A stretch of 64,000 nt of DNA from an uncultured delta proteobacterium (GCA_963775425.1 CAVZJB010000009.1:128001-192000); one strand, 5' to 3'; positions 37,089-64,000 are shown, numbered from the stretch's first letter. The notes: generated by a model not told the origin, from the sequence alone. Program-made: numbers and translations.

Positions 37089-37979
37089 CTAGCTCGTCGG
37101 ACGGGCGCTCGGCGCCGGTGGCGTCTCGGCGCGCTCGAGCGTGCGGCGCCGCTTGAAGAAGACCACCTCTTCGACGAGCCCGAGGCTGATGTAGGCGCCC
37201 ACGGCGAGGACGAGGGTGACGCTGGCCTTGAACAGGGCCACGGCGGCGGCCAGGATCAGCATCACGGACAAGAGGATGGGCGTGGTCTTCACGCTCGGCC
37301 GGAAGTCCTTGAACGTGCGAAAGCGCACCCGGCTGACCATCAGGTAGGACAAGACCAGCACGAGCAAGGCCACCGTGCCTTTGGCGCGCACGCTCTCGTG
37401 GATCCACAGCGACTGCGCGATGACGACGGAGACGAGCATCATGGCGGCGCCCGGGATGGGCAGCCCGATGAAGTACTTCGAGGAGCCGTGGCCCCGGGCG
37501 GCGAGCACGTTGAAGCGCGCGAGGCGGATGGCGCCGCAGGCGGCGAACACGAAGCTGACGAACAGGCCGACGTCGAAGCCCCCGATGCGCAGGTCCTCGA
37601 GGCCCCACGAGTAGACCATGATGGCGGGGGCGACGCCGAAGCTGATGACGTCGGCGAGCGAGTCCATCTGCACGCCGAAGTCGCTCTGCGTGCGCGTGAG
37701 GCGCGCGACGCGTCCGTCGAACGCGTCGAAGAACGCCGCGAAGAACAGCGCGACCGCGGCCTGGTAGAAGGCCTCGGGGCCGCCGCGCGACGTCGAGCGC
37801 ATGATCGAGAAGAAGCCGCAGAAGATCGACGACAGCGTGAAGGCGTTCGGCAGGATGAACAGCGCCTTGCGCAGGTCGAACGGCGGCTTTCGCCGCGGCC
37901 GCTCGATGCCGCCGGTGCGCAGCCGTCGACGAAAGAGCCGCCTGCGTTGGCGCGCCTCCGCGGGCGAGCCGTCGGTCAC
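37089..37979 (-). CDS. pssA: CDP-diacylglycerol--serine O-phosphatidyltransferase
   Basis: LPNAFT, DAFDGRVAR..SDFGVQMDSLADVISFGVAP, RLARFN, FIGLPIP. Confidence 0.93.
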   Translation of the reverse strand: MTDGSPAEARQRRRLFRRRLRTGGIERPRRKPPFDLRKALFILPNAFTLSSIFCGFFSIMRSTSRGGPEAFYQAAVALFFAAFFDAFDGRVARLTRTQSDFGVQMDSLADVISFGVAPAIMVYSWGLEDLRIGGFDVGLFVSFVFAACGAIRLARFNVLAARGHGSSKYFIGLPIPGAAMMLVSVVIAQSLWIHESVRAKGTVALLVLVLSYLMVSRVRFRTFKDFRPSVKTTPILLSVMLILAAAVALFKASVTLVLAVGAYISLGLVEEVVFFKRRRTLERAETPPAPSARPTS

Positions 37980-38269
37980 GGCGTTGTCCCGGCGTCCTCG
38001 GGCACGAAGCCGCAGGCGTCGAGCTTGTTCTCATCAATCGCGTCGCACGTGCAGGTGTCGAGCTTCTGCGAGCAGAAGGCGCGGTCCGCGTCCGTGATCT
38101 GGATGGTGCTCTGCTGGTTCACGATGCGGTCGGTGCGGCAGGACGTCTGCGCCGTGGAGTTCGGCTGGCAGTTGCAGATGCGGTCCGCGAGGACCTTGCA
38201 CGGATCTTCGCAGCCCGCGGAGAGGAACGCAGCGACGACGACAACGCCGACGAACGGAAGGAACCGCAC
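37976..38269 (-). CDS. Small Cys-rich lipoprotein
   Basis: SAG-C lipobox, CEDPC..LADRICNC..C..C..CTC..C. Confidence 0.75.
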   Translation of the reverse strand: MRFLPFVGVVVVAAFLSAGCEDPCKVLADRICNCQPNSTAQTSCRTDRIVNQQSTIQITDADRAFCSQKLDTCTCDAIDENKLDACGFVPEDAGTTP

Positions 38270-38279
38270 AAAGGGGGGC

Positions 38280-38867
38280 CTAGCCTGCGAGGAAGTCGAG
38301 CGCAAGGCGTGCGACCTCGGCGTCGTTCATGATGAACGTGTGAATCGCAGGCACCTCCACGTGGGGCACGCCGGGCAGCCGGGTCTCCTCCACGCGGACC
38401 ACGCCGTCGGACGGCTCCCCCTTGAACGGCAGCCACGCCGCCCGCGGGCCGCGGTTGCCGGCGATGACCAGGGTGGGGACGTCAGGCACGGGCAGGCGCG
38501 CGTAGAATTGCTCGTCGAGGAGCTTCTTGCCGGCGTCGCGGGTGAGCACCTTGAACAGCGGGTTTCCCTCGAGGGCCCGCGCCATCACCGGGGGTTGGTT
38601 GGGCGGGGCGAGCATGATCATGCGCGCGAGCCCGGGCAGGGGCAGGGCCAGGCGCGCGATGACGTTTCCGAGCGAATGGCCGATGAGCGCGTAGCCCTCG
38701 GCGTCGCCGATGAAGAGCTTGAGCTTGTGGGCGATGACGTCGACCGGGTCGCGCGTGACGAAGTAGCCGAACGCGGAGACCTCGTGGCCGGCGGCGCGCA
38801 GCCGGCGCGCGAGGAGGCCCATCGACACCGACGTGCGGCCCATGCCGTGGATCAGGAAGACGCGCAC
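38280..38867 (-). CDS. Esterase/lipase-type alpha/beta hydrolase
   Basis: LIHGMG, GHSLG, MLAPPN, SDGVV.VEET, HTFIM. Confidence 0.85.
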   Translation of the reverse strand: MRVFLIHGMGRTSVSMGLLARRLRAAGHEVSAFGYFVTRDPVDVIAHKLKLFIGDAEGYALIGHSLGNVIARLALPLPGLARMIMLAPPNQPPVMARALEGNPLFKVLTRDAGKKLLDEQFYARLPVPDVPTLVIAGNRGPRAAWLPFKGEPSDGVVRVEETRLPGVPHVEVPAIHTFIMNDAEVARLALDFLAG

Positions 38868-38906: not shown

Positions 38907-40349
38907 GTGTTGTATCGCGCGGTCGTCGGCTTCCTCACCCTCGTGACGCGCGTATTCTTTCGCAGCGTCGAGGTGAGCGGCCTCGAAAACGTCCCCGCCG
39001 ACGGCCCGGTCATCTTCGTCGGCAACCACCCCAACTCGCTGCTCGACCCCGTCCTCGTGATCACCACCTGCCGGCGGCCGGTGGCCTTCGCGGCCAAGGA
39101 GACGCTCTTCAAGGGGCCGCTCAACCCCTTCCTCAAGGCCCTCGGCGCGGTCCCCATCAAGCGGCGGCAGGACCAGGTCCCCGGCGCCGCCGAGGACGCC
39201 CCGGCCGCAGACGCGCCCGCCCGCGTCGACAACAGCGAGGCGTTCTCCGCGCTCCACGCCGTGCTCGAGGGCGGCGGCGCGTTCGGCATCTTCCCGGAGG
39301 GCATCTCGCACACGCGCCCGGAGCTCGCGCCCTTGAAGACCGGCGCCGCGCGCATCGCGCTCGGCGCCGCCGACAAGGGCGTGCCGGTGCGCATCGTCCC
39401 GGTGGGCCTCACCTACCGCCGCCGCGACCGGATGCGCAGCCGGGTGCTGGTGCAGTTCGGGCCGCCGCTCGTCGTCGAGCCCGCGCCGGCGGCGGAGGCA
39501 GAGGAAAGCGCGGAGTCGTCCCTCGACCGCGCGCGCCGGCTGACGGGACGGATCGGGCAGGCGCTGCGCGCGCAGACCATCAACGCCGCCGACTTCGAGA
39601 CCATCCGCGTCCTCGACGGCGTCCGCCGTTTGTACAAGCCCGACAACGTCGACCTCACGCTCGCGCAGCGCGCGGAGCTGATGCGGCGCTTCATCAATCA
39701 TTGGGAGCGCTTCCGGCACGAGCCGGAGATCCGCGCCTTCTACGGCGACGTCGAGTCGTACCTGCTGTCGCTGCGCGCGCTCGGTCTGACGGACACGGAC
39801 CTGCGCGGCGATCCCACGTCGCTCATCAACCGCGCCGCCTTCGTCATCAAGCACCTGGTGTTCTCCCTCGTGCTCGTGCCGGCGGCCATCCCCGGCGTCG
39901 TCATCCACGCCCCGGTGCTCGTCGCGGCGGTCTGGGCGGGGCAGGCCCTGACCTCGCGGGGCGACGTCCGGGCGACCATCAAGATGTGCGCGGCCACGCT
40001 GTTGACGCTGGCGGCCTACGCCGTCGTCGCGGGCCTGGTGCTCGTGAGGGTCCCGCCGCCCGGGGGCCTGGCCGCCGCCGGCACCACCCTCCTGGCGCTC
40101 CTGTTGTCCGGGTACGCGACCATCCGGGTTCTGGAGAAGCAGAGCGAGCTGCGCCGGGGCCTGTCCACGCTGCTCGCCCTGCTCCACCTCGACGATGAGA
40201 TCGCCCGGCTCGCCGCCGAGCGCGAGCGGCTCCGCGCCCGGCTCCTGGGGCTCATCGACGCCTACCTGGGCGAGGACGTCCCCCGCATCATCGACCGGGC
40301 GGCGCACGACGACGCCAAGGCCTGGCTCGACGCCGACGATCTCGATTGA
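38907..40349 (+). CDS. PlsC-type acyltransferase with C-terminal membrane domain
   Basis: NHPNSLLD, IFPEG.SH, LKTGAAR motifs. Confidence 0.88.
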   Translation: MLYRAVVGFLTLVTRVFFRSVEVSGLENVPADGPVIFVGNHPNSLLDPVLVITTCRRPVAFAAKETLFKGPLNPFLKALGAVPIKRRQDQVPGAAEDAPAADAPARVDNSEAFSALHAVLEGGGAFGIFPEGISHTRPELAPLKTGAARIALGAADKGVPVRIVPVGLTYRRRDRMRSRVLVQFGPPLVVEPAPAAEAEESAESSLDRARRLTGRIGQALRAQTINAADFETIRVLDGVRRLYKPDNVDLTLAQRAELMRRFINHWERFRHEPEIRAFYGDVESYLLSLRALGLTDTDLRGDPTSLINRAAFVIKHLVFSLVLVPAAIPGVVIHAPVLVAAVWAGQALTSRGDVRATIKMCAATLLTLAAYAVVAGLVLVRVPPPGGLAAAGTTLLALLLSGYATIRVLEKQSELRRGLSTLLALLHLDDEIARLAAERERLRARLLGLIDAYLGEDVPRIIDRAAHDDAKAWLDADDLD

Positions 40350-40380
40350 GCGCGCTCGACGGCGACCCCAAACGATGCCA

Positions 40381-41736
40381 ATGTCCGCCATCGTGACAGA
40401 CGGGGAACCCGAATCGCCGCCGGTGCGCAAGAAGCGCGATCCGAACGAGCTGCGCGTCGCGCGGTACGAAGGGCCGCAGCCGCCGCCCGAGGTGCCGCTG
40501 TACCGCGCGCACAGCACGCCGGGCGCCGGCGACCTCCAGTTCGGCGTCGCCGACGAGAGCGAGCCCCCGCTCGATCTCCCCGCGGGCCCCGCGGGCGAGG
40601 CCGAGCTCGCGCTCGGCCGCGCCGATCCGCAGGCGGCGCGCGCCGCCGTCGAGGCCGCTGACATCCCCGCGGAGATCGCCCGCGCCGTCCGCGCCCGCGC
40701 CGCGCTGATGGCCGGCGACGTCGACGAGGCCAAGGTGCAGCTCGGCAACGAGCGGGACATGCCCGCCTTCGCCGTGGCCGACGCCGCCCTCGCGCTCGCC
40801 GAGGGCGACGCCGCCCGCGCCGCCCGCCGCGTCGCCGACGCGCTGTTCAGCCGGCCCAACGGGCTCGCCGAGCGGTACCTGTTTGCCCTCGTCAAGGTCG
40901 CCGAGGGCGACATGGCCGAGGCCGGCTCGGCGCTCTCCGACGTCGCGCGCTCCGCGCCGACGCACGCCGTCGCCCGCTACCAGCTCGGCCAGATCCTCCT
41001 CGCCACGGGTGATCCCGCGCGCGCCGGGACGCTGTTCGAGATGTCCTGGCAGCTCCAGCCCACGTTCGTGGCGCCGGCGCTCGCCCTCGCCGAGATGCTC
41101 GCCGACAGCCGCCAGTACGGCGAGGCCTTGAACCTCGTCACCGCCGTGTGCGACGCGGCCCCCGACGCCCTCGCGCCGCGCTCGCTGCAACTGCGCGTGC
41201 TGCTCGAGGTGGGCGAGCGGGAGGCGGCGCTTCAACTGTCGTCGATGTTGCACGACAAGTTGCCGGCCGACGTCGACATCGCGCTCCTGCACGCGGAGGC
41301 GCTCGCGGAAAACGACAAGCCCGAGGACGCCAAGGCCGTGCTCGACGCGCTCTTGCAGGGGCCGAGCCCCACGGCCATCCAGCAGCGCGCCCGCCGTCAG
41401 CTCGCCCGCATCGCGCTGGCCGAGCGTCCCCCGCGCGCCGCCGACGCCATCGCGCTCATGAAGGAGGCGGCCCGCGCGGGCGGCGCCCTCCTCGGCGAGC
41501 TCTGCATCGAGATGTTCCACGTCTGCATCGCCGTGGGCCGCAGGAGCGACGCCGAAGAGGCCCTCGAGATCCTCTCGGAGGCAGGCGACGTCGGCGCCCT
41601 GATCTCCGGCGCCATCCTCGCCCGCAGCCACGCCATGTGGACCTGGGCGCGCAAGCTCGGCGAGCAGGCCCGCGGCCACGTCGCCGGCTCCCCCGCAGAA
41701 GCCCAGCTCGAAGGCTTCCTCGCCACCCTGCCGTAA
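40381..41736 (+). CDS. Tetratricopeptide repeat protein
   Basis: Ala/Leu-rich helical repeats (ARYQLGQILL, ALALAEML, ALLHAEAL). Confidence 0.8.
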   Translation: MSAIVTDGEPESPPVRKKRDPNELRVARYEGPQPPPEVPLYRAHSTPGAGDLQFGVADESEPPLDLPAGPAGEAELALGRADPQAARAAVEAADIPAEIARAVRARAALMAGDVDEAKVQLGNERDMPAFAVADAALALAEGDAARAARRVADALFSRPNGLAERYLFALVKVAEGDMAEAGSALSDVARSAPTHAVARYQLGQILLATGDPARAGTLFEMSWQLQPTFVAPALALAEMLADSRQYGEALNLVTAVCDAAPDALAPRSLQLRVLLEVGEREAALQLSSMLHDKLPADVDIALLHAEALAENDKPEDAKAVLDALLQGPSPTAIQQRARRQLARIALAERPPRAADAIALMKEAARAGGALLGELCIEMFHVCIAVGRRSDAEEALEILSEAGDVGALISGAILARSHAMWTWARKLGEQARGHVAGSPAEAQLEGFLATLP

Positions 41737-41775
41737 TCGTGAGGGCGCGCTGCGCGCGCCGATTCAGCGGCTTGT

Positions 41776-41822
41776 CGGCTGGCCCGATGGACCGTTGATC
41801 CGAGCCACCCGGAAGGGGACGG
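41776..41822 (+). repeat. Short copy of dispersed MITE-like repeat family
   Basis: cggctggcccgatggaccgttgatccgagccacccggaaggggacgg matches revcomp of 51469-51515 (1 mismatch) and 60250-60284. Confidence 0.85.
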
Positions 41823-41876
41823 CCGGCGCTCGCAGTCCTCGTGGGGCGGCGCCGCCTTGCCCCGCTCGTGGTCGTC

Positions 41877-41900
41877 GTAGGGCGGGGGCTTGTCCCCCGC
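41877..41900 (+). repeat. GTAG-type REP element
   Basis: Identical to 32118-32140; degenerate GTGG copy at 41841-41865. Confidence 0.8.
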
Positions 41901-41913
41901 GTCGATGGGGCGC

Positions 41914-43923
<2,010 letters not shown>

Positions 43924-61628: not shown

Positions 61629-61712
61629 ACCGAAGATTAGCCCGCCGAGGAGGATCCCGCTCGTCGGTTGAAATTCGGCGGGATACAAGCGCGCGTCCCC
61701 TCGAGGTGTTTC

Positions 61713-62528
61713 ATGGGTTGGGCCGAATCCACGCTGTTCGAAGAGCGGTTGCCGGATCGGTTCCCCAAGCTCGTGAACCTCTACGAGAAGGCCAAGCGGG
61801 ACTTCTGGAACGAGTCCACGGCCATCGACTGGGACCAGCCCCTCACGCTGTCCACCGACGAGCGGCGCGCGCTCGCGCGCATCCTGAGCATCACCTACTA
61901 CGGGGAGCGCGCGGCCATGACCATCGCCGGGCAGCTCGTCGCCAGCGTGCCCGACGAGGAGGCCCGGCAGGTGCTCGCCTGCCAGGTGATCGAGGAGGCC
62001 AAGCACGTCGGGGCGTTCCAGAAGCTGCTCAAGCGCCTCGACAAGATCTCGCCGCCCTCGTTCTTTGCCAAGAAGCTGCTCGTCGACCTCATCGAGACCG
62101 ACGAGCCCGCGGCCAAGATGGTCGGCATGCACATGTTCGTCGAGAACATCGCCAACCACAGCTTCCATGCGCTCCACGACGCCATCGAGGACCCCCTCGT
62201 GCGGCAGGTGCTCGACTACGTGGCCCGCGACGAGAAGAAGCACACCGCCATCGGCGTCCTCTATCTCCCCGCGCTCCTCAAGGCGCTGCCACGCCACAAG
62301 CTCGTGTGGCTGGAGATGAAGCAGGTGAAGTGGCTCGGCCTCGGCCTCGGCATGGTGAAGGACGGCTACGAGGACGCCCGCGTCCTCCAGATCGACCTCG
62401 CCTCCGCCGGCCAACGGGCGCTGCGCCAGCACTACCGGCTGCGGGAGCAGCTCGCGACCACCCGGGGCCTCATCGACGTCCCCGGCTTCGATCGCGTGAT
62501 CGACCTGATCGGGCGTTGGGCCTCATAG
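61713..62528 (+). CDS. Ferritin-like diiron protein (R2/AurF-like)
   Basis: LYEKAK..W, GERAA, EEAKH, VENIA, RDEKKH: two E..ExxH sets. Confidence 0.82.
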   Translation: MGWAESTLFEERLPDRFPKLVNLYEKAKRDFWNESTAIDWDQPLTLSTDERRALARILSITYYGERAAMTIAGQLVASVPDEEARQVLACQVIEEAKHVGAFQKLLKRLDKISPPSFFAKKLLVDLIETDEPAAKMVGMHMFVENIANHSFHALHDAIEDPLVRQVLDYVARDEKKHTAIGVLYLPALLKALPRHKLVWLEMKQVKWLGLGLGMVKDGYEDARVLQIDLASAGQRALRQHYRLREQLATTRGLIDVPGFDRVIDLIGRWAS

Positions 62529-62689
62529 CCGCGTGGCTGGAGCCCTCGGATCTGTGGTGAACATGCCGCAACCGTGGCGTTCTTACCGCGGACCGAATTG
62601 TCCCGAATCTGGCGCGTTCGGCGCAAACCGTCGGGGTAAATTGACCGCACCCCCGCCTCCGCGATCGCGTCAACATGCAGTCTCGGGGT

Positions 62690-62705
62690 TGGCATGGAGG
62701 ATGCT
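62690..62705 (+). promoter_or_regulatory. Sigma54 (-24/-12) promoter
   Basis: TGGCATGGAGGATGCT: GG at 62691-62692, GC at 62703-62704 (GG-N10-GC); predicted +1 about 62716. Confidence 0.7.
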
Positions 62706-62715
62706 GTTGGCTGGC

Positions 62716-62825
62716 TCCACAGACAGCCGGCTGCGTTGACTTCCCCCCAGGTCGATCGGTTGTCTGTGGAAGGCCATCTGAAGCGGCGTCCCCCCCGTGC
62801 CGCAAAGATGGCCTTCGTTTTTTTT
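62716..62825 (+). ncRNA. Candidate ~110-nt sRNA with two poly-C-loop hairpins (Pxr-like)
   Basis: Stem 62716-62729/62757-62770 with inner stem closing a C6 loop; stem 62769-62779/62806-62816 with inner stem closing a C7 loop; T8 at 62818-62825. Confidence 0.72.
62769..62825 (+). terminator. Intrinsic terminator (3' hairpin of the sRNA candidate)
   Basis: gaaggccatct/agatggccttc 11-bp stem followed by 8 T. Confidence 0.8.
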
Positions 62826-62869
62826 CCGCGCCGGCGGCGTCCTGCTGTATCCGCGCCCTCGAGGTGACC

Positions 62870-63613
62870 ATGGCTCGCAAGGACGGGCGCGCGGCGACGG
62901 AGCTGCGGCCGGTGAAATTCGACGTCGGGTTCGTGAAGCACCACGCAGGGAGCGTCCTGGTGAGCTTCGGGGACACGCGGGTGCTCTGCGTCGCCACCGC
63001 CGAGGATCGGGTGCCGCCCTTCCGCCTGGCCTCGGGCGGCGGCTGGGTCACGGCCGAGTACTCCATGCTCCCCGCCTCCACGCATGAGCGAAAGCATCGG
63101 GAGATCTCCCGCGGCAAGGCCGACGCCCGCTCCGTCGAGATCCAGCGGCTCGTGGCGCGCGCGCTCAGGAACATCGTCGACATCGACGCCATCGGGCAGC
63201 GCTCCATCACCGTCGACTGCGACGTCCTTCAGGCCGACGGCGGCACGCGCACCGCCTCCATCACCGGCGGCTTCGTCGCCCTCGCGCTGTGCTTGAACGA
63301 CCTGCAAAAGCGCGGCGTGTCCATGAAGGGCAAGAAGCTCAAGGACGTCCTGCGCGCGCAGGTGGCGGCGGTGTCGCTCGGCATCCTCGGCGACGAGATC
63401 TTCACGGACCTCAACTACGGCGAAGACTCCAAGGCGGAGACCGACCTCAACCTCGTCGCCCGCAACGACGGCACCATCGTCGAGATCCAGGGCACCGCCG
63501 AGGGCCACCCGATGAAGCGCGAGCAGCTCTTCGCCGTGGTCGACCAGGGCCTCGCCGCCGTGCGCGAGCTGTGCGCCAAGCAGAACGAGGCCCTCGGGGG
63601 GATCCTCGGGTGA
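62870..63613 (+). CDS. rph: Ribonuclease PH
   Basis: R.DGR...ELRPV, GWVTAEYSMLP.ST..R..RE, EIQRL, DCDVLQADGGTRTASITG, EIQGTAEG. Confidence 0.96.
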   Translation: MARKDGRAATELRPVKFDVGFVKHHAGSVLVSFGDTRVLCVATAEDRVPPFRLASGGGWVTAEYSMLPASTHERKHREISRGKADARSVEIQRLVARALRNIVDIDAIGQRSITVDCDVLQADGGTRTASITGGFVALALCLNDLQKRGVSMKGKKLKDVLRAQVAAVSLGILGDEIFTDLNYGEDSKAETDLNLVARNDGTIVEIQGTAEGHPMKREQLFAVVDQGLAAVRELCAKQNEALGGILG

Positions 63614-64000
63614 GCGCCGTCCTCGTCCTCGCCACGCAGAACGCGAAGAAGCGGCGCGAGCTCGAGGACCTCGTCGCGGGCGGGCCGTGGCTCGTGCGCA
63701 CGCTCGACGACGTCGGCCTCGGCGGCCTCGCGATCGAAGAGACCGGCGCCACCTTCGCCGAAAACGCCCGCATCAAGGCCGACGCCGTGCTCGCGGCGCT
63801 GCCCGAGGGCGAGCGCCGCGAGACCTTCGCCGTCGTCGCCGACGACTCGGGCATCATCGTCGACGCGCTGTCTCCCCCCGCGCGGCGCGACGCCCCCGAG
63901 CTCCCCGGCGCGCCCGCCGGCAGCCGCCACGACGGCCCGGACGCAAAGCCCGGCGTGCGCTCGGCCCGCTTCGCTGCCGACCACGGCGTCGAGATGCTCG
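63610..64000 (+). CDS. rdgB: Non-canonical purine NTP pyrophosphatase, 3'-truncated by window edge
   Basis: LVLATQNAKK..EL, EETGATFAENARIKA, ADDSG, PGVRSARFA; overlaps rph stop. Confidence 0.9.
   Translation, partial: MSAVLVLATQNAKKRRELEDLVAGGPWLVRTLDDVGLGGLAIEETGATFAENARIKADAVLAALPEGERRETFAVVADDSGIIVDALSPPARRDAPELPGAPAGSRHDGPDAKPGVRSARFAADHGVEML

Follow-up and report, generated by a model that had tools for sequence, protein, structure and literature searches.

Promoter, hairpins and conservation of the predicted RNA

The 64,000-nucleotide (nt) stretch of DNA analysed here (the window; GCA_963775425.1 CAVZJB010000009.1:128001-192000), from an uncultured delta proteobacterium, carries a small-RNA (sRNA) gene that is real and uncatalogued, in an uncultured lineage of the Myxococcota. 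The unit lies at 62690–62825 on the plus strand and consists of a sigma-54 promoter, two hairpins with poly-C loops and an intrinsic terminator. As a preliminary description of this DNA had placed it, it stands between a diiron-type oxygenase-like gene, whose stop codon is at 62528, and the RNase PH gene rph, which begins at 62870. The genome that holds it is called G000 and its family f1; other G and L numbers are the genome and locus labels of our survey.

The promoter is a sigma-54 -24/-12 motif, TGGCATGGAGGATGCT (TGGCATG-N4-ATGCT), at 62690–62705 on the plus strand, and it fits the GG-N10-GC consensus spacing. The pattern TGGCAYG-N4-WTGCW has this single match in the window, where 0.03 matches are expected, and 3 of 100 shuffled sequences contained one. 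Counting 12 nt onward from 62704, the C of the -12 GC, places +1 at about 62716, the first base of the first hairpin stem. Both the motif and its agreement with the start of the stem had been described previously, and both were recovered here.

The predicted RNA, about 110 nt long (62716–62825, plus strand), folds into two consecutive hairpins. Hairpin 1 (62716–62770) has an outer stem of 13–14 base pairs (bp), formed by 62716/7–62729 with 62757–62769/70 and containing a single G-U pair (G62726–T62760), and a 5-bp inner helix, GACUU/AGGUC (G62738–T62742 with A62749–C62753). The inner helix closes loop 1, CCCCCC at 62743–62748, which is unpaired in both the minimum free energy (MFE) and the centroid structures. 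Hairpin 2 (62770–62816), the terminator hairpin, has an outer stem of 10–11 bp (62770–62779 with 62806–62815) and an inner helix (62783–62787 with 62799–62803) around loop 2, CCCCCCC at 62790–62796. A run of eight T at 62818–62825 follows, as the end of the intrinsic terminator. The two stems capping C6 and C7 loops and the T run of the preliminary description were all found in place, with stem sizes as given here.

The plus-strand MFE was -57.9 kcal/mol, compared with -36.2 ± 3.5 kcal/mol for 200 dinucleotide shuffles, none of which folded as well (z = -6.2), and the fold recovered the two poly-C-loop hairpins. The minus strand gave z = -3.0. A terminator scan with a simple-hairpin rule and a sigma-70 promoter scan listed nothing at the RNA locus; the rule of the terminator scan takes only loops of 3–8 nt and so passes over hairpin 2, where an inner helix and an internal loop are present. 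Screening 62000–64000 with cmscan against 4,227 Rfam families, with permissive filters and E ≤ 10, returned only a chance microRNA match elsewhere in that stretch.

BLAST among 40 relatives yielded six related stretches, which were used to build a covariance model, R1, on a specified consensus structure. An RNAalifold structure from an alignment that included the promoter was rejected, the pairing of promoter with loop 2 being an artefact of non-transcribed sequence. R1 detected a single copy in 8 of the 11 genomes of family f1, including G000, and copies in both genomes of family f3, one of which (G017) has two. The order is also the whole class, and its 28 further genomes gave no copy, nor did the 141 genomes left in a sample of 151 from the phylum; these searches score a capped number of first-look candidates and can miss copies. 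One that R1 missed, in G013 (family f4), is 94 nt long and has loops of C6 and C5. A metagenome contig (L193) provided the twelfth distinct copy, complete with a sigma-54 motif.

Other candidates were dropped. Among the 12 metagenome stretches returned, L187 and L192 were weak matches (18.5–23.3 bits) with poor folds and no sigma-54 motif. A loose-pattern search of genome contigs produced at least 118 stretches, and the 3 of these 118 that R1 accepted add no member, since their scores equal those of known copies. The named records that contain the RNA (L062, L067 and L143) are all metagenome-assembled genomes labelled Deltaproteobacteria, Myxococcales or Myxococcota. The order to which the 8.3-Mb G000 belongs also includes family f6, with 21 genomes of only 0.3–3.4 Mb, and in these 21 neither the RNA nor the candidate activator orthologue discussed below was found.

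The alignment of the 12 sequences was examined for covariation. Standard pairs fill 94.8% of cells, compared with 35–44% when partners are slid by 1–3 columns; the alignment (A4) had been fitted to the structure of the model, and such fitting works in favour of these counts. Changes on both sides occur in 26 of 32 pairs, and none of 500 shuffles reached any of five measures. Compensatory changes are found at 12 of 13 pairs of the hairpin 1 outer stem (94.5% of cells paired) and at 9 of 9 pairs of the hairpin 2 outer stem (100% paired), and the raw MAFFT alignment shows them clearly too. Loop 1 is C6–C7 in all 12 copies; loop 2 is C5–C7 in 11 of the 12 and CUCCCUC in G003. The terminator keeps a run of at least four T in 10 of 12 copies, the remaining two having TTTAATT (G008) and CTCTTTGA (G003). 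In each of the 11 genome copies the first stem is preceded, at an unchanged distance, by a motif of GG-N10-GC type, whose -12 element is weaker (GT or GA for GC) in two of them. The discrete non-coding unit proposed earlier is thereby borne out: promoter, 5′ end and terminator agree, the promoter is kept in the relatives, the stems covary and the C-loops are constant.

Upstream sites and a candidate activator

Upstream of the promoter, the window contains palindromic sequences, to which no strand is assigned, that look like activator sites. The distal site A1 (TGTGGT-N6-GCCGCA, 62553–62570) lies about 158 nt before the RNA. The second distal site, A2 (CGTGGC-N6-ACCGCG, 62573–62590), matches the palindrome on both strands at -138/-141 and is weaker or absent in other copies, and the proximal site B (GGGGT-N6-ACCGCA, 62633–62649) lies about 79 nt before the RNA. 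The form that recurs among the copies is yGyGGT-N6-ACCrCa. The proximal palindrome stands at -69 to -82 in 9 of the 9 f1-type copies examined (8 genomes and the metagenome copy) and the f1 copies have the distal one at -150 to -168; in f3 the positions are -100/-103 (two copies) and -190, respectively. The pattern GGY-N6-RCCNCR occurs 44 times in the 3,300 nt upstream of 11 copies, compared with 3.5 expected from the genome's own frequency; since the motif was derived from the very sequences in which it was counted, the agreement in position outweighs the count. A loose regular expression for the promoter gave 1,343 sites in G000, among which only the window promoter has three or more of the palindromes, and no regulon emerged.

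The preliminary description had noted that no enhancer-binding protein (EBP) gene adjoins the RNA. This holds for G000 and fails for G009 and G003, where the RNA is divergently adjacent to an NtrC-type activator gene encoding a receiver domain and a sigma-54-interaction domain. An orthologue of this activator is found once in each of the 11 f1 genomes, with 60–65% identity compared with about 40% for paralogues, and the activator gene adjoins the RNA in 2 of 12 loci. In G000 the orthologue is found away from the RNA, on contig C8 (41027–42358, within locus L197 at 39111–42358), where it follows a gene for a histidine kinase whose PilS-like membrane domain is weak. To judge from its sequence and position, this divergent NtrC-type protein is the best candidate activator of the RNA, an assignment that we hold loosely. 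No RNA copy was found beside the activator orthologue in G005, G010 and G007, which are negative with R1, and a 16.5-bit match after the activator gene of G000 was rejected, as it lacks C-loops. The gene for sigma-54, rpoN, is present in G000, and Hfq was not found in this genome, which is 94.55% complete.

Comparison with Pxr and a survey of the phylum

Pxr (RF01812), the developmental sRNA of myxobacteria, which keeps fruiting-body development blocked during growth, was the comparison made in the preliminary description, which considered the window RNA a possible distant homologue. Published accounts are cited here from excerpts of the papers. These describe a predicted sigma-54 promoter, upstream activator sites, three predicted stem-loops (SL) and a position just downstream of the gene for the NtrC-like response regulator PxrR (PMC5684412, PMC5568312). 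The SL1 loop is essential, a single C-to-A change abolishing function without lowering the level of the RNA; the host is without hfq, and action by pairing is proposed (PMC5684412). According to the excerpts, the direct targets of Pxr are not known (PMC11928866), two Cystobacter paralogues are predicted to have only two stem-loops, and Pxr arose recently, inside a single suborder (PMC5568312, citing Chen et al. 2014).

The resemblance in design is close. Both RNAs come from the same phylum, have a sigma-54 promoter, measure about 109–110 nt and begin with a long 5′ hairpin tipped by a poly-C loop, C7 in Pxr SL1 and C6 in the window RNA, at a promoter-to-C-run distance of 43 and 38 nt, respectively. 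Hfq is absent from the Pxr host (PMC5684412) and was not found in G000. The traits of Pxr given in the preliminary description (transcription by sigma-54, a similar size and a C-rich loop) proved correct: a sigma-54 promoter is predicted for Pxr, its Rfam model counts 109 positions, and a C7 loop sits on its first hairpin.

Homology to Pxr, in contrast, was not detectable. The published 26-nt Pxr Northern probe, used as a pattern, has matches in 37 of the 54 family f14 genomes and in 0 of 147 others (reversed control, 0), and six true Pxr loci scored 86.9–134.8 bits against RF01812, whose gathering score is 80. The window RNA gave no match to this model at E ≤ 10 (62000–64000, permissive filters), and in the reverse test R1 reached at most 15.3 bits on Pxr (E 0.08 in 91 kb). 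PxrR was likewise rejected as an orthologue of the RNA-linked activator: its best matches in G000 are other activators, and the linked one ranks 36th with 41% identity (37% by BLASTP). The GGY-N6-RCC palindrome of the window RNA had one match in total in the upstream regions of the six Pxr loci, where the activator sites are TTCAG..TGAAA repeats. On these sequence comparisons the window RNA is not a member of the Pxr family. The architecture differs as well. Whereas Pxr has three stem-loops and one poly-C loop, the window RNA has two hairpins, both with poly-C loops, with no counterpart of SL2 and with the second hairpin doubling as terminator; and whereas Pxr lies on the same strand just downstream of pxrR (nla19), the window RNA is divergent or far from its candidate activator.

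A survey was made of 201 Myxococcota genomes, most of them metagenome-assembled, using the pattern TGGCAY-N6-TGCW followed after 28–50 nt by CCCCCC; the unpublished genome G195 is counted in the survey tallies only. The pattern matched in 121 of the 201 genomes, with about 274 matches (150 listed and 124 unlisted), and the reversed pattern gave 57 matches in 44 genomes by hand tally. This makes a conservative control: in G000 the promoter motif occurs 138 times in reversed and 35 times in true form, a fourfold excess of the reversed one. Because a single strict promoter pattern was used, the survey misses variants and includes some leaders. The matches form groups conserved within families.

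From other families, 52 promoter-linked sites were folded, 30 chosen by the tool and 22 picked by hand as conserved-looking. Under a strict criterion applied to MFE folds with predicted transcript ends (the C-run wholly unpaired in a hairpin loop with at least 8 enclosing pairs), 27 of the 52 passed, namely 13 of the 30 tool-chosen and 14 of the 22 hand-picked sites. The number of enclosing pairs was usually 18–30, the outermost pair usually lay 0–4 nt from the predicted start, and a run of at least five T was present in 22 of the 27. Among other C6 runs in the same loci, taken as control, 2 of 28 passed, neither with such a T run. Passing sites occur in families f8, f10, f13, f16, f19, f22, f33 and f34, and sites in f18 and f31 fell just short; with f1, f3 and f4 (window RNA) and f14 (Pxr) added, at least 13 families at the level of the GTDB are represented in all.

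The forms are varied. Single hairpins of 62–81 nt that double as terminators are found in f16, f19, f22 and f33; twin poly-C loops like those of the window RNA occur in f10 and once each in f16 and f22, and up to three loops are present in L264. Contig C497 of G056 (37763–38620, L276) carries three tandem genes about 400 nt apart, each with its own sigma-54 motif, a 62–71-nt hairpin, a C8 loop and a T run, and two more copies lie on other contigs. At 9 of the 30 tool-chosen loci the RNA gene and a gene for an NtrC-type activator diverge, as they do in G009 and G003; the activators at these 9 loci are only 31–37% identical to the candidate activator of the window RNA. The inner helix and loop GGACUU/C-C8-9-GGUCC of f16 and f22 resemble GACUU-C6-AGGUC of the window RNA, and R1 matched an f10 locus on its poly-C terminator hairpin with 29.5 bits (E 1.7e-5). 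These sequence likenesses are some evidence for shared ancestry, and no proof of it.

Some matches are of another kind. Loci L287 and L288 of family f14 (genus g63) have a conserved sigma-54 promoter, a C6 leader, AAGGAG and ATG, which is an mRNA leader and no sRNA; this type is found in at least 13 genomes among the matches listed, and several other matches contain start codons. A second sigma-54 sRNA candidate in G000 (contig C1, 14423–14528; L297–L300) has the promoter TGGCACCGCTGCTGCA and a predicted length of about 80 nt, with a 5′ hairpin bearing a 25-nt C-rich loop and then a terminator hairpin with seven T. Three relatives, G004, G006 and G002, share both the unit and its promoter motif, and no activator gene lies within 3.4 kb. 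A palindrome, CGCGATCGCG, at 62660–62669 of the window ends exactly 20 nt ahead of the promoter TGGCA; it recurs at the same spacing before the promoter of this second candidate in G004, G006 and G002, is absent before the other copies of the window RNA and occurs 138 times in G000, and it may be the site of a bending protein or a coincidence.

We propose to define this class by a sigma-54 motif and, within 28–50 nt of it, a run of six or more C exposed at the tip of a long hairpin that starts close to +1, features that the window RNA has. It seems to be one family within a Myxococcota-wide group of sigma-54 poly-C-loop RNAs, of which Pxr is the one studied member. The new context suggested in the preliminary description is thus to be understood more widely than for a single family, the same design being found across the Myxococcota. 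More tentatively, and with rather less than even confidence, we suggest that Pxr may be a branch of an ancient module of the phylum, combining an NtrC-type regulator, a sigma-54 promoter and a poly-C 5′ hairpin RNA, rather than a recent one-off of the Cystobacterineae. The window RNA would be the twin-loop form of this module in an uncultured class. Full-text literature searches, whose coverage excludes most subscription journals, found no description of such a class.

Outside the phylum, sX13 of Xanthomonas reportedly acts through C-rich loop motifs on G-rich mRNA sites, and is said to have three loops with 4–5 C and not to be driven by sigma-54. It also differs from the window RNA in being gammaproteobacterial, and the window RNA has no Rfam match. 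The actinobacterial 6C sRNA, which we take to be Rfam RF01066, is not, to our knowledge, sigma-54 dependent; no 6C match to the window RNA was obtained at E ≤ 10 (62000–64000) in a run that had no 6C positive control. Two C-rich loops of 6C bind G-rich ribosome-binding sites without a chaperone and repress the targets, and the excerpt describes no upstream activator sites, unlike the candidate sites found here (PMC6486639). Despite the different phylum, the window RNA shares with 6C two hairpins with at least six C in each loop (C6 and C7 here, conserved in 11 of 12 copies), a GC-rich host without detected Hfq and the same depletion of G6 runs from the genome (for 6C, PMC6486639).

In its regulation the window RNA is more like the pairs Qrr/LuxO, GlmY/GlrR and CrcZ/CbrB, in which, in the excerpts of their descriptions, an NtrC-type response regulator, upstream sites and a -24/-12 promoter give a short terminated RNA, with multi-copy or tandem genes in some lineages, as in G056. 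Judged by sequence, the window RNA shows traits of such sigma-54/EBP sRNAs, with a conserved -24/-12 promoter, rpoN and candidate upstream sites. It is unrelated to Qrr, GlmY and CrcZ, with different seeds, and most of those RNAs rely on Hfq or a protein partner.

Genomic context, proposed function and alternatives

The neighbours of the unit, both outside it and on the plus strand, are the diiron-type oxygenase-like gene at 61668–62528 (Pfam AurF, 1e-08, 35.1 bits with a cut-off of 29.6; start at 61713 in a rough gene call) and rph at 62870–63613 (Pfam RNase_PH and RNase_PH_C). Downstream of the RNA, rph is found in 5 of the 12 copies (G000, G004, G002, G006 and G001). The second copy of G017 also lies between the diiron gene and rph, on the opposite strand and pointing away from rph. 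Neighbours of other copies are a DUF1385 gene, a VTC-domain gene, an L31 gene or the activator gene. Across these settings the RNA unit is accompanied by its own promoter and its own upstream sites.

A soil metatranscriptome run contained a small share of the sequence words. Its single contig, of 242 nt, covers 62730–62823 and departs from the window by one deletion and one mismatch, T62760C, by which the G-U pair becomes G-C. A close relative's copy thus stands in an RNA library, and nothing more can be read from it: the low depth and the continuation past the terminator into different sequence mean that the contig shows no discrete transcript.

The function was considered in the light of the G-runs of the genome. 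In G000, G6 and C6 runs number 1,279 and 1,334, compared with 17,897 predicted from composition, about 14-fold rarer. In rough gene calls, 52 G6 runs start at -20 to -1, compared with an average of 13 per 20 nt at +1 to +60. The sense strand in these calls has fewer G6 than C6 runs past the start codon, and more G6 than C6 runs directly ahead of it. A run of at least six G at -28 to +6 is present in 55 of 4,328 rough gene calls. At three places in G000 (C8:366339, C14:144289 and C11:409866) the ATG is directly preceded by G6–7; two of these genes carry TTGGCA-N17-GCTAMA upstream and the third GCTACA only, and from their sequence these elements may be promoters giving very short leaders.

We consider it probable, with reservations, that the locus is an independent sigma-54 sRNA gene, whose activator-driven product of about 110 nt pairs through its poly-C loops with G-runs of mRNAs without Hfq. 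An NtrC-type EBP, bound to two or three palindromes 80–160 nt upstream, would activate sigma-54 RNA polymerase, and transcription from about 62716 to the T8 run would give an RNA consisting almost wholly of two long hairpins, each displaying 6–7 unpaired C at its tip. These loops would be the seeds for rare G-runs in mRNAs, most probably in G-rich ribosome-binding sites, and pairing would lower translation, stability or both. Synthesis would be induced by a signal through sigma-54, masking a small set of ribosome-binding sites with G-runs, and, having two loops, the RNA could bind two targets or bind bivalently. Anti-Shine-Dalgarno pairing is, by this analysis, the most likely function of the RNA. 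The conserved exposed feature is the C-run, and all else covaries or drifts; masking of G-runs is favoured by this constancy, by the analogues Pxr and 6C, by the failure to find Hfq, by the depletion of G6 and by the peak of G6 before start codons.

Several observations weigh against this proposal. The 17 annotated candidate targets with G-runs have no common theme, prediction by duplex energy gives no outlier because GC-rich flanks dominate, and a candidate of Ldh/Mdh type is present in only 1 of 10 relatives. The loops, of 6–7 nt, are closed by stable helices, so that pairing is limited unless the inner helices open. Sigma-54 activators need the GAFTGA loop, and in 6 of 13 orthologues of the candidate activator this loop is degenerate (F and/or T lost), including those of G000 (GASASWTNGG) and of G003, whose RNA adjoins the activator gene; the activator assignment is weak for this reason. 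With a depth of 2.2 and 149 nt of unlike sequence beyond the terminator, the metatranscriptome contig may stem from carried-over DNA. To these are added the fitting of the alignment to the model structure and the derivation of the palindrome motif from the sequences in which it was counted.

Rather than an independent gene, the unit could be a cis-acting leader or attenuator of rph-rdgB, in which the sigma-54 promoter drives rph and the terminator hairpin sets read-through. The position of rph, 45 nt past the T run on the same strand and downstream in 5 of 12 copies, is compatible with this, as is the contig that runs past the terminator. The varied gene neighbours, however, argue that the unit is not an rph leader: the G017 unit between the diiron gene and rph faces away from rph, and other genes follow in G008, G009, G003, the other G017 copy and G012. 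Moreover, the terminator is strong (10–11 bp with an inner helix and T8) and no conserved alternative, anti-terminator pairing was found, and we regard a leader as very improbable. A structured intergenic element that is no gene at all, such as the terminator of the diiron gene with a chance promoter-like motif, or a repeat, would account for hairpins that come after the stop codon of that gene (62528), in genomes whose GC-richness makes intergenic hairpins abundant. The RNA is, however, single-copy in G000 and conserved with its promoter motif in differing contexts, including loci without the diiron gene. Hairpin 1 begins 188 nt beyond the stop codon, the covariation is strand-specific, and the C-loops and T run lie on one strand, all of which leaves this explanation scarcely credible.

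A more serious alternative concerns the mode of action. The RNA could be a sponge whose poly-C loops titrate a poly(C)-binding protein of KH or cold-shock type, as CsrB and CrcZ do with CsrA and Hfq. Constant loops on varying stems fit recognition of a displayed motif equally well as base pairing, the multivalence of two loops in this RNA, of as many as three in L264 and of tandem genes in G056 resembles that of sponges, and no mRNA target was found. On the other hand, no candidate protein was found and none is encoded beside the RNA, many members of the class have a single loop and would make poor sponges, and pairing has been shown for 6C (PMC6486639) and proposed for Pxr (PMC5684412) in the excerpts cited. 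A sponge is accordingly considered unlikely, and an sRNA that pairs with G-runs is the reading we prefer.

No myxobacterial sRNA other than Pxr has a known role. An uncultured class of Myxococcota carries an RNA that is unrelated to Pxr by sequence and built on the same plan, and the survey suggests that this plan is phylum-wide and often paired with an activator gene of its own. The class offers a comparative handle on poly-C loop recognition, with many natural variants on which pairing rules can be tested, and it points to chaperone-free pairing of C-loops with G-runs in GC-rich Gram-negative bacteria without Hfq, in parallel to actinobacterial 6C. If its members indeed share ancestry and a C-run/G-run seed, the targets of Pxr could become findable by comparing ribosome-binding sites with G-runs across the phylum.

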